Source: Escherichia coli (GTDB lineage: Bacteria; Pseudomonadota; Gammaproteobacteria; Enterobacterales; Enterobacteriaceae). Taken from it: a DNA stretch of 64,000 bases. Location: assembly GCF_050920415.1 (NCBI RefSeq), contig NZ_CP169309.1. One strand, given 5' to 3'. Made by a program: the position numbers. Of the stretch, positions 51,001 through 57,000 are shown one piece after another; the first letter of the stretch is position 1, and the number at the start of each line of letters is the position of its first letter.

Positions 51001-54000
51001 TGAAGTGGTGAAAGGAAATATAGCTATGGAATAGTCTGAAGTGTTATCTTCATTTATTCTAGTTTTGAAAACCTGTCCACTGAAACGATAACCTTTCCGG
51101 TAGATTGTTTCTATGCAACGATCATAGCCAATTTTTTCAAAAATGCAGCGCAAAGAATAGATACATCTTGTCAGGGACTCGTCACTTACAATAATATTTT
51201 TCCATACTGATTCGATGATCATATCTTTCAGGACAACATGACCAGCGGATTCAAGTAATACGATCAATACTCCTAACTCTTTCGGTGGAATATAAATTTG
51301 CTCATTTCCTTGAGTAAGAATTCCATCTTCCGTGAGCGTTAATCCCTCAAGAAAATGATATGAGAATTTATTTTCTAAGTCCATTAGTTAACCTCTATGA
51401 AAAAATTGGTTTCTTGCATCCTGCATAAGCAATAGAAATAGTGGCTATTCATATTTATGTGTCATTAATGCTATAGGAGTTTACATTCGACATATCTATG
51501 GTTGTGTTCACTAATTTATCTTAGGAATTCAGTGATGTAATCTGAAATAGCCTTATTCAATTTTGATAAAATAGATTGTTCTCTAACGCGTTGAAAAATA
51601 ATAATTTATAGTGTGTTCTTAACTGTTTTAAGATGTTGATTTAAGAAAACATAAGAGAAGCTGGTCATAGTGGTTAACTGCACTATAACCAGCAATTTTA
51701 ACCAAAAGATTGTAATGCTTAGCCATTATCTTCTGAATTATCAGTTAAGAGTTCAATATATGCCTGCGCTTTGCTCTTAACACTTTCATCCTCACAATTG
51801 TTAATAATATGATAGAAACATTGCATTGCGTTATCGATATTTTTAGCCCCAATTTGACATTGACCCATACGATAAATAACTGAATAGTCATCATACGGGG
51901 AGTAATTGTAACTTAGTTTGTAAAGGTCATATGCTTGTTGATATTTCTTTTTTGACTGGCATACTGATGCAAAACCTTTTAGATATTCATGATTTTCGAA
52001 CGCATAAATGCACAGAAATTTATAATAAATTTCTGCGTCCGTTATATTACCTTTTTCATGGTAGTCGAATGCATATGCATATATTCTATCAAGGATATCA
52101 GGAGTCAATCCATGTAGTAATGCCAGATTTTCTCCTTGCGATAATGCGTGTTTTAGTTGACTTGCCCATTCATCACTGTTATTGAATATTTCAAGTGTAT
52201 CTGTGCTCATAATATTCCTCTGTGATGTGTTTCGTGATGCTAAATTATTATTGATTGACTCATTAATTTTTATGTATTTATCTTTTTTGAATTATGAGTT
52301 TTAAGCTTGCATTGCTTATGGGTATATTGGTTCATTATTAGTAAAAATACTGACCACTATAAACCAATAATGTCATTAGTTGTTTTGCTAATATTCACCT
52401 TATTAGTTATCTTATTTACGATATTTCATAAATGCCTTAATATGCATGACCTTGATTCATATTATCAATTTCCATTTTTTCGATGAAAATTAAAAAGGGG
52501 ATTTTTGCGAAGGGTCGTAAGTCGTCTGGTTTTTTTTCTTTATTATGTCTGATGACGAGGGGGGATAGTACATCGGTGCATATAGTAGAGAATTTATTCA
52601 GGTCTAAATTATTCTCTATTTTGGCCAGTTTTATGAGTTCATTTGTAGCCATACTCATTAAATCATCTGTTATCGGAAATTTATATATGCTCATAGCAGA
52701 TAATATTGCTTGCTGAATTATTTCTTCAGAAATATCCGCTATCTTTATTGACAAATCATGTGTTAGATATTTTCCTCCAAGAGATTCTTGTTCAATATAA
52801 TTTAAACCAGACCTCATCGTAATTTTAACTGGATTCACGAATTTCTCTTCATTTTTCTTATTTTTGTTCTCCTGATCAGGAACTAATGGTTGCAGTGGTA
52901 GGCTATTATTAATATTTCGTGGCTTCATTTTACATTTCTCTCATTTGATTAGAGCAAAATCCGAATTCGCAGCTTCTGATAATGTCAAATATCACCTTTT
53001 CTAATGCTTTATTCTATCAAAAATCGCTCATTTTTACTTTTTTTACCATAATGTTACTTAGTAGCATCGGCAATTTACATAACTTACATGTTGCTTTTTA
53101 TATCCTGAAAAAACAGATAGATAGTGTGCGCACTCGAAATGATATTGGTAACATAAATAGCTTTATTCGTGACAAACATCTCAAAAGATTTCCTTTTATT
53201 ATTTTTGAAATTCATTTGATCAAGGTTATCACCTTATGGAGACGTTACGTAGAATGACTATATTTGTTATCGGCACATTAGGGGTATTAAATTTAGTATT
53301 GATGGAAGGTGATTATTGAACAATAACATCGAGTCACGGTAAAAGTGTGAGGTATATAATGGACATTGAGTTTTCGCAGATTCATGAAATGGTCTATATG
53401 CATGATATTGTAAATTCGGACTCGAAAAAGAAACCAAGGATTCCGTTAAAAAAATTCCTTAATGCTGAGAAGGTTCTCACGCAAACAACATCATGGGCAC
53501 TAAATTCAAGATATGTGAATGTTAATTCTGTCAGTAAAGTCAACGTAAAGAGTAAAGTTAAAAACAGTTATATCTCACGATCTGTCAATGATGAGTTTAG
53601 TTTAACAGATGATGAAATCAATTCTTTTAAAGAAACGTTAGTCCTTTCCTCTATTGATTCACTAAGTAAACTGGTTCTTAATAATCCTCTTTCTGTATTG
53701 TTTACATCGACTGTACGAAGGAATAATAATAGAGCTAAGATGAATGTTGAGTTCGACTCATGGATTTGCACCAGATGTTGTTGATACATGATATTTTACA
53801 TTGCAAGGTGATGTCTAAAATGAAAGATGTTGATCAAAACTTTGATGCTTTATACTGGCATATACTACAAGCATATTTAATTTTATTGTTTTATGATTAA
53901 CGAGGTTCCATCTTTTTGTTATCTATTTAAGTTTACCTTGCACAATGCATGATTGCTCTGTTACCAATACTCAAAATAAAAGCATGCTTACCTTGCTTTA

Positions 54001-57000
54001 TTATATTATAGCTTACACTTTTTTCTGGAAAGACATAAAAATCAGGAATAAGTTCTGCAAGTCTATCATCATCGACTTGATCCATGATCTCAAATTTATT
54101 AACTTTCTTTGATGTTAAATGGGCTGTGTCATAGTTTTCAATCCATGTGTATTCAATATTTCGCCGTATTGATTTACTTTCTCTGTTACCTTGTTGCCAG
54201 GTTCCGCTCAACGCAACAGTTCCTGTTTTATTTTTTTGGTTATACATAAAGTCGATGGTAAGATTTGCTCGCCCCTTGTCATTAAAAATTACCCAATTTG
54301 CAGTGCATGTTTCATTATATATCATTTTTTCTGCAGTATAAGAGTAAACAATGAAGAGAATAAACCCACTGATGAAAACTAAAATAAATAATAAGTTTTT
54401 TTTATAATCAATCACGATTAACCTCACGGTAAGACAGGGTTAAACAGCCTGCCACTTCATGTTGGTTATAGTTTTTATTGCATGCCATAACAATCATCCT
54501 TGGTGAGGATTTTGCAAGAGGGAAGTATAACCACGGATATTTTTTACAGTTAATCCCCGAATCCAGTATCCGTGTCTTATATTTATCGAACTCTTTCAAC
54601 CCATCAATTGTATCTTCTGTCACATTAAAATGGCAGCCATTAATTTCCGCAACAGTCTTGTAATCCTTGAAGAATGGCTTCGGTTGATTCTTATTCCATA
54701 GCCAATGTGCAGAATATACGCCTATAGCAAATATGCTCAACATAATTAGATAACTTTTTATATGTTTGAGGATTTTGTTATTGAAATTGTTTGCGCTACC
54801 AATGCTCTCTTTGTACTCCGCATTACCTTTTACCGCAGGTGGGGTATTGTGTGTATGTGCGTCTGTTGAAGAGTTTATTGCATGATTTTGTATGTTAATG
54901 TCATTATGAATCTTGAATCCTCTTCTCGGCACGGTTGCAATAAGCGAGTGGGTGGTATCACCAACAGCGCGAAATCCGCGTCTGATAATGGATATGTTCT
55001 GATATAACGTGTTAGTTGGCACACGCATACCTTCTTCTTCCCAGACTCTGGTGAAAAAATCTTGTTGTGCAACCACATCAGGAAAAGCTTCAAGTAGAAG
55101 TGATAAACAACGACTGGCTGGCGTTGTCAGAACGACGTTAAGATCGGCGTTATGTACCGATATTAATTTTCGGTGCTCAGGCCAGAACTCGATATTATCG
55201 TTAATAATCCAGTACATACGTCAATAGACACTAAATCAATCGAAATGGAAATCACATAGTTTGCTAAGTATATTGGTATTTACGGCATAAATATATATTA
55301 ATTTTATATTTATCATAATGATTGAAATGAGGCTTTAATGTCGCAACGTAAAACTTTACGTAAATTAACATGATTAACATTTACGCCACTATTGTTTGTA
55401 AATTCATATTTCGTAATGCTTCTGAATTTTTCGTGTGATGGTTTTAAATACCATGTTGTTTACTCTTGGGGTTACTGCTTATTTATAAAATACGGGCATT
55501 TCAATAGATGCCCGTATAAGCAGAGTATGATTCTGGCAGATTGTTGAGTATCAATGTTGGACCGAATGTGAACGAATAAATAACTCGTTTATTTTACCAC
55601 CCATTCTCTTTTCGATTCGTTGCTTGTACGCGTAGATGCTACGGATATCCATATCCAGAACTTCAGCAATCTGATATGGATTAAAACCAGAAACCATATA
55701 CCCCATTATGGTGAATTCCATCTGAGTTAATGTGTTCCCTCTGGTAAATGATAAATAACGACCAATAAATAGTTGTCTGATCTTTTCATTGGCAACATCA
55801 AGACCATCATCATTATATATGACAGCAGATATTGCAGAGTTGTGTTTTCGCCAGTAGTTAGCTAACGATTGCATATTGCGGTCGCTGACTAAAACAATCC
55901 CCATGTCAGTACTTGCAAGATAGTCAATCCAGTCTTTTTCAAGGAATAGACGTAAAAAACTTACTGAAAAATCGACAAAAATATATCCGCTTAATCTCGC
56001 ATTGTGGTTTTTTGTTAAGATACCTTCCACCACACCACGATTAAAATATGAACTTTCTTCGGGCCACATACAAAAACACGAGTTTGCGCAATACTGCAAA
56101 CGCGGTGACTCTTCTGGCATTATTTGGCAATGCATTGAGCAACTATTGCATGTAAGACTTTTATAACGACTACAAAGCCCCATGTTAAGAACCTCCCTAT
56201 CCGTATATAATTGCATAATTTCATTGGTTATTGATGATGTCAATACACCATGATTTTGTAATTTTGCTGGGAAAAATTGCGATTAATCTGTATTTGCTAT
56301 AATTCTGAGTAAGGCATTTAAAAATGCATTTCTCGTTATCAAATATGATTATGTTTCACTGATTTAATCTTGCATGGTTGAGAACGGTTCAGATAACTAT
56401 CTCATGGTATAAGAATATCTATATCGCAAATTGTTTTTGAATGACCAGAAGATATCTTGCGAATCTAAGTTATGCATCTTAAATAGTCTTATTTAAGATG
56501 TTCAGATCTCTTTGTGTGTTTAACTAACTGATAATACTAGGATTTGACGAGAGAAGTGATAGAGCGGAATAATAACAAATGAACATTATGAAAACTGGAA
56601 TGGTTCAAAATTGTAGCAATTTTGAACCATTCACAACGGATATTAGCTAAAGAACATTACCGATACGCACAGGATACCCACGATCAGCGTAATCAGATTT
56701 CCGATGGAACGCCAGGGTTTAAGCGCCGGGATGAGATATGTTGACAGCGTAGGCATGATGAAAAGTATCATGGCAATGAGCGGGCCGCTGATCGCGTAAA
56801 TCATCGAAATCGCGTTCGGGTTAATGCAACAAACAAAGAAGGTAATGAGCGATACCAACATAATTGATAGTGCGCGGTTAAATGCACGACTTTTCTTTAC
56901 ACCAACCTGCTGTAGTGTTGTTTTGACGACCTCCGTGGCACCTTCAATAACGCCAAAGTACGTACCCAGGAATGATTTCGACATCGCAACTACTGCGACA

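Follow-up and report, generated by a model that had tools for sequence, protein, structure and literature searches.

The yqeI–yqeJ locus

We investigated the yqeI–yqeJ gene pair of Escherichia coli in a 64,000-nucleotide stretch of contig NZ_CP169309.1 (RefSeq assembly GCF_050920415.1), hereafter the window, where the two genes are likely to encode a membrane-bound transcription regulator and its periplasmic partner, comparable to ToxR and ToxS of Vibrio. Open reading frame (ORF) calling recovered both genes on the minus strand, together spanning 53933..55217, as originally predicted from the DNA (Table 1). In the annotation of close genomes, the order runs from type III secretion apparatus genes through ygeH, ygeG, ygeF, yqeK, yqeL, yqeJ, yqeI and yqeH to yqeG, beyond which lie the core genes yqeF, kduI, kduD and araE. 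This puts the pair, as anticipated, near the yqeG/yqeF-side end of the cryptic type III secretion island ETT2, an end that falls within the window. The GC content is 0.31–0.38 over the island, against about 0.50 outside it, in the flanking core genome. Of 5426 complete E. coli genomes, 3766 (about two thirds) contain a match to the 2.2-kb region encompassing yqeI and yqeJ, which is annotated there as yqeI/yqeJ.

The exact arrangement of the junction between the two genes depends on the start assigned to yqeJ. The longest ORF (53933..54427) begins with GTG, encodes 164 amino acids and overlaps yqeI by 20 bp, the dimensions given in the original prediction. These hold for the maximal ORF but probably not for the real gene, and we rejected this model in favor of the start used in RefSeq and in K-12, the GTG at 54415, which yields a protein of 160 amino acids and an overlap of 8 bp. 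The shorter model is preferred because a GAGG ribosome-binding site lies 6 nt 5' of this GTG, because Escherichia sp. E1V33, the nearest species, has an ATG at the equivalent position, and because an 8-bp overlap of the form RTGAnTAR is the commonest junction among homologous cassettes (approximately 26 of 41). In the published account of systems of this type, YqeI/YqeJ was listed among the exceptions to the overlap pattern (Kinch, Cong, Jaishankar and Orth, PNAS 2022; PMC9214523).

Table 1. Coordinates, in the window, of the yqeI–yqeJ cassette, its predicted domains and neighboring features
Feature	Position	Strand	Basis
yqeJ, encoding the FidL/YqeJ-family periplasmic co-component; start GTG at 54415, 160 aa	53933..54415	-	ORF, RefSeq, K-12
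YqeJ residues 30–160, predicted eight-stranded lipocalin-like barrel; Cys37/Cys158 on first/last strands; helix-bearing loop 108–132	53936..54328	-	
YqeJ residues 8–27, predicted N-terminal membrane anchor after Lys-Lys	54335..54394	-	Kyte-Doolittle 2.54; helix 4–29 in model
yqeI/yqeJ junction, translationally coupled overlap	54408..54427	-	sequence, RefSeq/K-12 start, homologous cassettes
Junction: yqeI stop TGA	54408..54410	-	sequence
Junction: probable yqeJ start GTG	54413..54415	-	sequence
Junction: GAGG ribosome-binding site	54422..54425	-	sequence
Junction: alternative upstream GTG	54425..54427	-	sequence
yqeI, ToxR-like transmembrane transcription regulator, 269 aa, ATG start, intact	54408..55217	-	ORF, RefSeq annotation, 111 homologues
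YqeI residues 176–269, periplasmic domain with invariant Cys195, Cys224, Cys246 and Cys258	54411..54692	-	alignment and fused model
YqeI residues ~155–175, predicted single transmembrane helix SYLIMLSIFAIGVYSAHWLWN	54693..54755	-	sole hydrophobic segment
YqeI residues 106–154, low-complexity cytoplasmic linker, poorly conserved	54756..54902	-	alignment gappy, length varies
YqeI residues 1–105, cytoplasmic OmpR/ToxR-type winged-helix DNA-binding domain	54903..55217	-	Pfam and PDB sequence matches
AT-rich yqeH–yqeI intergenic region, presumed yqeIJ operon promoter/regulatory region	55218..55550	-	sequence, GC content
yqeH, LuxR-type regulator	55551..56183	-	
ygeF, intact ORF, 163 aa	52437..52928	-	
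IS2 copy within ETT2	42781..44054	-	NCBIfam IS2 models
LuxR-type regulator ORF abutting IS2	42305..42796		

YqeI combines a ToxR-like DNA-binding domain with a predicted cysteine-containing periplasmic domain

A Pfam search of YqeI detected one domain only, Trans_reg_C (residues 28–102, E = 4e-9), and no receiver domain. The top matches among PDB sequences were three chains of the Vibrio cholerae ToxR DNA-binding domain (E = 1.7e-7 to 5e-7, covering YqeI residues 2–103 or 4–103), the best being 8b4b (residues 2–103, E = 1.7e-7), followed by chains of PhoB-family proteins and CadC. Judged by sequence matching, then, ToxR is the closest solved structure for the DNA-binding domain of YqeI. The N-terminal OmpR/ToxR winged helix claimed for YqeI was accordingly recovered together with its signature VPRRGFKI, which occupies residues 96–103 and in which P97, R98, G100 and F101 are invariant in the alignment of 41 homologues from which we read YqeI conservation. 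Conservation of YqeI is highest in this domain, with a mean pairwise identity of 52%, compared to 15% for residues 106–177.

The single central transmembrane helix of the original prediction corresponds to the segment around residues 155–175, for which the hydrophobicity is marginal (19-residue Kyte-Doolittle maximum of 1.47–1.59); in the predicted topology, a hydrophobic block is found at the equivalent position in all 41 aligned homologues. The periplasmic part had been described as a short tail, a description that did not survive the analysis: the membrane helix is followed by 94 residues that contain four invariant cysteines (Cys195, Cys224, Cys246 and Cys258) and are predicted to fold in the order strand-strand-helix-strand-strand-strand (block pLDDT, the predicted local distance difference test, of 73–94 in the fused model described below). 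This predicted order fits the periplasmic core of VtrA and ToxR as described in PMC9214523, minus the last, C-terminal helix of the Vibrio proteins, which is missing from the predicted YqeI domain.

Compared with K-12, YqeI of the window differs at 16 amino acid positions, against 5 for YqeJ, and 13 of the 16 differences fall within residues 113–176, that is, in the linker and the membrane helix. YqeI Tyr227 is Tyr in at least 90% of the homologues, and K-12 has His at this position.

YqeJ is predicted to adopt the fold of ToxS and VtrC

The family to which YqeJ belongs is small: a search of 1.84 billion cluster representatives yielded 97 at E ≤ 1e-3. Across an alignment of 65 full-length members, Cys37, Gly65 and Gly71 never vary, and conservation is almost complete for Arg85, Phe126, Pro154 and Cys158, the last of which is present in at least 90% of the sequences. 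The most conserved motif of the family, (L/I)PDFYV(Y/F)P (residues 122–129), maps to a helix-bearing loop between strands 5 and 6.

The protein begins with a short N-terminus and a hydrophobic segment preceded by two lysines, followed by the body of the protein. The AlphaFold2 model built from the 65-sequence alignment (pLDDT 94.5; predicted template modeling score, pTM, 0.80) consists of a helix (residues 4–29) and eight strands, with a short helix within the long loop that joins strands 5 and 6. Of the conserved cysteines, Cys37 is on the first strand of the barrel and Cys158 on the last, an arrangement that fits a body located in the oxidizing periplasm. Hydrophobicity, the modeled helix and the conserved cysteine pair therefore bear out, at the level of prediction, the claim of one N-terminal transmembrane helix with a periplasmic body; it is possible that the helix is a cleaved signal peptide rather than an anchor. 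For the FidL/YqeJ group, a disulfide that closes the barrel has been reported (PMC9214523), and the cysteine pair corresponds to it.

Comparison of the YqeJ model with the whole PDB returned ToxS (8u2f, 8alo_B) and VtrC (5kev/5kew) as the top matches by two independent methods. In the Foldseek search against 350,542 PDB chains, the first three ranks were taken by V. parahaemolyticus ToxS (8u2f_A), V. cholerae ToxS (8alo_B) and ToxS 8u2f_B, and ranks 5, 7 and 9 by VtrC chains, with target-normalized template modeling scores of 0.62–0.68; classical lipocalins ranked lower. The structural comparison on which the original prediction had staked its ToxS assignment thus yielded a ToxS-type fold, not a dissimilar one. 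At the sequence level, YqeJ had no meaningful match in Pfam-A or NCBIfam, where Pfam ToxS was not matched even at E ≤ 10, and both a phmmer search and the 65-sequence profile gave chance matches only against all PDB sequences, ToxS and VtrC included. YqeJ is therefore outside the ToxS family as defined by sequence; it is a member of the FidL/YqeJ family in the same fold-level superfamily.

Among the database sequences we noted P0034, a single protein of 215 amino acids in which a YqeI-like DNA-binding domain is immediately followed by the C-terminal half of a barrel of the YqeJ type, probably reflecting a gene-fusing deletion or an assembly artefact.

The two genes are conserved as a pair

To assess the conservation of the pair, we located loci with a YqeI profile, using one genome per species, and then scanned the ORFs of each locus with a YqeJ profile; because the search relied on YqeI and not YqeJ, neighbors were not picked for carrying YqeJ. 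Of 55 Enterobacterales loci, 41, from many genera and including Salmonella enterica subsp. diarizonae (L018), have a YqeJ-like ORF that immediately follows the regulator gene on its strand; among them are all 29 loci with the strongest full-length YqeI matches (L002–L030). Seven of the 55 loci (L035, L036, L044, L046, L049, L050 and L053, from Trabulsiella, Mixta, Erwinia and Izhakiella) encode short regulators of 160–181 amino acids, consisting of a winged helix and a membrane helix at the extreme C-terminus, with neither a periplasmic domain nor a YqeJ-like gene downstream. Full-length regulators lacking a detectable YqeJ-like partner were found in six loci (L031, L033, L040, L042, L048 and L055), and L037 retains only fragments of both genes. 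The protein P0030 (935 amino acids, eight matching stretches) was discarded as a low-complexity repeat protein with a spurious match.

The periplasmic domains of the two proteins diverge faster than the DNA-binding domain and at an equal pace, with mean pairwise identities of 30% and 32%. Pairwise identities of the YqeI and YqeJ periplasmic domains are strongly correlated (r = 0.92), but this value does not exceed that between the DNA-binding domain and YqeJ (0.93) and hence reflects shared phylogeny, being uninformative with respect to interaction.

We separately modeled the two periplasmic domains as one chain, using a paired alignment of 32 cassettes in which YqeI 178–269 and YqeJ 30–160 were connected by a 30-residue Gly-Ser linker (253 residues in total). 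Both domains were modeled with block pLDDT of approximately 73–96, with the linker below 50, and the pTM of the chain was 0.77. Had the two domains (92 and 131 residues) been placed independently of each other, a much lower pTM would be anticipated, which implies a defined relative arrangement; the model is supportive of, although not conclusive for, a defined YqeI/YqeJ periplasmic complex. Upon co-expression, the periplasmic domains of YqeI and YqeJ have been found to form dimeric complexes (PMC9214523).

These data bear directly on the possibility that the adjacency is incidental and that YqeJ acts on its own as a lipid-binding or barrel protein of the periplasm, with no bearing on the function of YqeI. 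We regard this as the least likely of the alternatives, and very improbable, given that the overlapping same-strand arrangement is kept in the 41 loci across many genera, that the partner is missing exactly where the regulator has no periplasmic domain, in the seven loci with short regulators, and that both the pTM of the paired fused model and the complex obtained on co-expression (PMC9214523) speak for association.

A probable co-component regulator

Given how the domains are arranged, the ToxS/VtrC-like barrel predicted for YqeJ and a gene pair that is both conserved and coupled, we consider it probable that yqeI–yqeJ is a translationally coupled two-gene operon for a 'co-component' transmembrane regulator of the ToxR/ToxS, VtrA/VtrC and MarT/FidL kind. 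The ToxRS-type architecture and gene arrangement originally ascribed to the pair are upheld by the predicted fold, the ToxR-like DNA-binding domain and the pairing in 41 of 55 loci. Under this interpretation, YqeI would bind DNA directly from the inner membrane via its N-terminal winged helix, with no phosphorelay, and its one transmembrane helix would connect the DNA-binding domain to the disulfide-containing periplasmic domain. YqeJ would be anchored beside YqeI by its N-terminal helix, with the lipocalin-like eight-stranded barrel in the periplasm, where, by analogy with VtrA/VtrC and ToxR/ToxS, it may bind the periplasmic domain of YqeI. A small hydrophobic molecule in the barrel, a role played by bile salts in the Vibrio systems, might then stabilize or oligomerize the complex and turn on YqeI-dependent transcription. 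Ligand sensing, this mode of activation and, with them, the label "periplasmic-signal-responsive" given to the pair in the original prediction are extrapolated from the Vibrio systems.

Alternatively, YqeJ could be a stabilizing partner only, which shields the periplasmic domain of YqeI from periplasmic or intramembrane proteolysis, with the signal acting elsewhere, for instance, through pH or the redox state of the YqeI cysteines. Such shielding is the role proposed for ToxS with respect to ToxR and for TcpH with respect to TcpP. The four invariant periplasmic cysteines of YqeI could themselves sense redox or pH, and proteins of the FidL/YqeJ family have no known ligand. Against this possibility, which we rate as unlikely, the barrel fold of YqeJ is common to VtrC and ToxS, both of which were crystallized in bile-salt-sensing studies; 5kew and 8dml are VtrA/VtrC structures with bile salt bound. 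Furthermore, the most conserved motif of the YqeJ family lies in the strand 5–6 loop, the position that in VtrC and ToxS is occupied by a mobile lid over the lipid site (PMC9214523), and the YqeJ loop carrying (L/I)PDFYV(Y/F)P would be the positional equivalent of that lid.

Several observations weigh against the co-component interpretation. YqeJ has no sequence similarity to ToxS, TcpH or VtrC, so that its relationship to ToxS rests on the predicted fold and the gene context. The membrane helix of YqeI is only marginally hydrophobic, and the flanking charges, three Lys/Arg on each side, do not favor either orientation. When the fused model was searched with Foldseek, the periplasmic domains of ToxR and VtrA were absent from the top 50 matches for the YqeI half, and pTM is the sole indicator of a complex from that model. 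The island is AT-rich and often decayed, with yqeI frameshifted in the closest genome, and the literature that we searched gives no ligand, signal or direct target for YqeI/YqeJ.

More tentatively, and with a lower probability than that of the co-component assignment itself, the following may hold jointly: the ligand of YqeJ would be a host-derived hydrophobic molecule other than bile salts, with the PDFYV loop serving as the lid; the ancestral role of the clade would be switching on neighboring adhesin genes, in keeping with the chaperone-usher fimbrial genes located near 11 of 42 homologous cassettes; and the E. coli copy would have been rewired to flagellar and ETT2-linked genes. If this is true, identifying such a ligand, of a class that would be new, and delimiting the regulon would amount to a modest but real advance.

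Relationship to known systems

The classification of YqeI/YqeJ as a ToxR/ToxS-like pair is already known, having been published in 2022 (PMC9214523). In that study, YqeI/YqeJ of K-12 and Sakai were presented as candidate "co-component" systems ("YqeJ lipocalin"), orthologous to Salmonella MarT/FidL, with FidL and YqeJ 'confidently related by sequence' through profile comparison and the whole group assigned to the VtrA/VtrC–ToxR/ToxS superfamily from predicted folds. YqeJ was also listed as the partner of YqeI in a 2023 survey (PMC10269533), and a 2026 preprint on ToxS (PMC13042144) includes "YqeIJ" among such systems and proposes bile-induced ToxS dimerization as the activating step. What we add is small: fold searches across the entire PDB, in which structures of ToxS are now available, the finding that cassettes of this kind typically have an 8-bp overlap at the junction, and the tally of partnered, orphan and tail-anchored relatives. 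The remaining value is experimental and lies in what ligand YqeJ might bind, how YqeJ affects YqeI and which genes are direct targets. YqeI/YqeJ is the sole cassette of its kind in E. coli K-12, and should it respond to a signal from the gut or the host, it could provide an accessible model for ToxR-like signaling from periplasm to DNA without phosphorylation.

The closest counterparts are MarT/FidL of Salmonella, encoded in SPI-3, and GrvA/FidL of E. coli O157, each of which is the same cassette made up of the same two protein families. The difference lies in the genomic setting and presumably in the targets: MarT activates the adjacent misL autotransporter gene, GrvA acts on LEE-dependent adherence, and yqeIJ, at the ETT2 edge, has no autotransporter gene next to it. 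Vibrio ToxR/ToxS shares the overall plan, namely, a regulator with a winged helix, one membrane helix and a disulfide-containing periplasmic domain, as predicted for YqeI, and a partner gene immediately downstream encoding an N-terminal anchor and a barrel, as predicted for YqeJ. However, ToxS and YqeJ are only 9–14% identical in structural alignments, with no detectable sequence similarity, and the barrel-closing disulfide further distinguishes YqeJ from the Vibrio pair. With VtrA/VtrC, the bile-salt receptor of V. parahaemolyticus, the identity is 7–9%, and bile-salt binding and control of the adjacent secretion system are properties demonstrated for VtrA/VtrC.

CadC of E. coli is, like YqeI, a ToxR-like membrane-bound one-component regulator, and YqeI matches it with E = 1e-4 in NCBIfam, far under the cut-off, and with E = 0.018 for the CadC DNA-binding domain in the PDB. 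In contrast to YqeI, CadC senses pH through a large domain in the periplasm, cooperates with the permease LysP and has no downstream gene for a lipocalin-like partner.

Genomic surroundings

The state of the island raises the possibility that the cassette is a silent or decaying ETT2 remnant with no regulatory role in this strain, the island being silenced and under weak selection. The region is AT-rich (GC 0.31–0.36, against about 0.50 in the flanking core genome), ETT2 is widely degraded (PMC11068852, PMC3977695), and the ETT2 of the window contains an IS2 copy. In K-12, which lacks a functional secretion system, yqeIJ is retained; the yqeI copy of the nearest genome has lost 1 bp, and truncated YqeI clusters (P0105–P0107) are common in the protein database. 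Still, neither reading frame is disrupted here or in K-12, the conserved cysteines and the DNA-binding motif are preserved, and the pair is present in the 3766 complete genomes mentioned above. Deletion of yqeI in an avian pathogenic E. coli strain has phenotypic consequences, reducing flagella, motility, serum survival, adhesion and colonization (PMC7552227), and overall we consider the remnant explanation quite improbable, although not to the same degree as incidental adjacency.

The genome with the frameshifted copy is NZ_CP169399.1, the nearest complete genome, where yqeI (L001 7009..7817) is annotated as frameshifted; the copy in the window is intact. Each of the three clusters of truncated YqeI has hundreds of members, which suggests frequent decay or partial assemblies.

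A scan of 53600–55700 for promoters and terminators found 13 promoter-like sites, compared to 9.5 ± 3.7 in shuffled sequences, not above chance.

A gene for a chaperone-usher fimbrial chaperone, identified by eye, is found within 4 kb of a YqeIJ-like cassette in 11 of 42 loci (L005, L006, L011, L018, L032, L039, L041, L043, L052, L054 and L056), and a fimbrial subunit gene in 7. These fimbrial genes recall PsaE/PsaF and MyfE/MyfF, which control fimbriae.

The IS2 copy, with matches of 725 bits for TnpB and 276 bits for TnpA, accounts for a block with a GC content of 0.557 in otherwise AT-rich DNA, and it abuts an ORF for a LuxR-type regulator, with an overlap of 16 bp. The ygeF ORF, annotated as a pseudogene in K-12 MG1655, is intact in the window and has no NCBIfam match. 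Directly upstream of yqeI, yqeH encodes a LuxR-type regulator similar to EcpR, which regulates the common pilus operon of E. coli (E = 1e-20, with a score of 75 bits that is well short of the 300-bit cut-off). In 7 other genera or species, a similar LuxR-type ORF adjoins the cassette downstream of the yqeJ homologue, encoded on the opposite strand.

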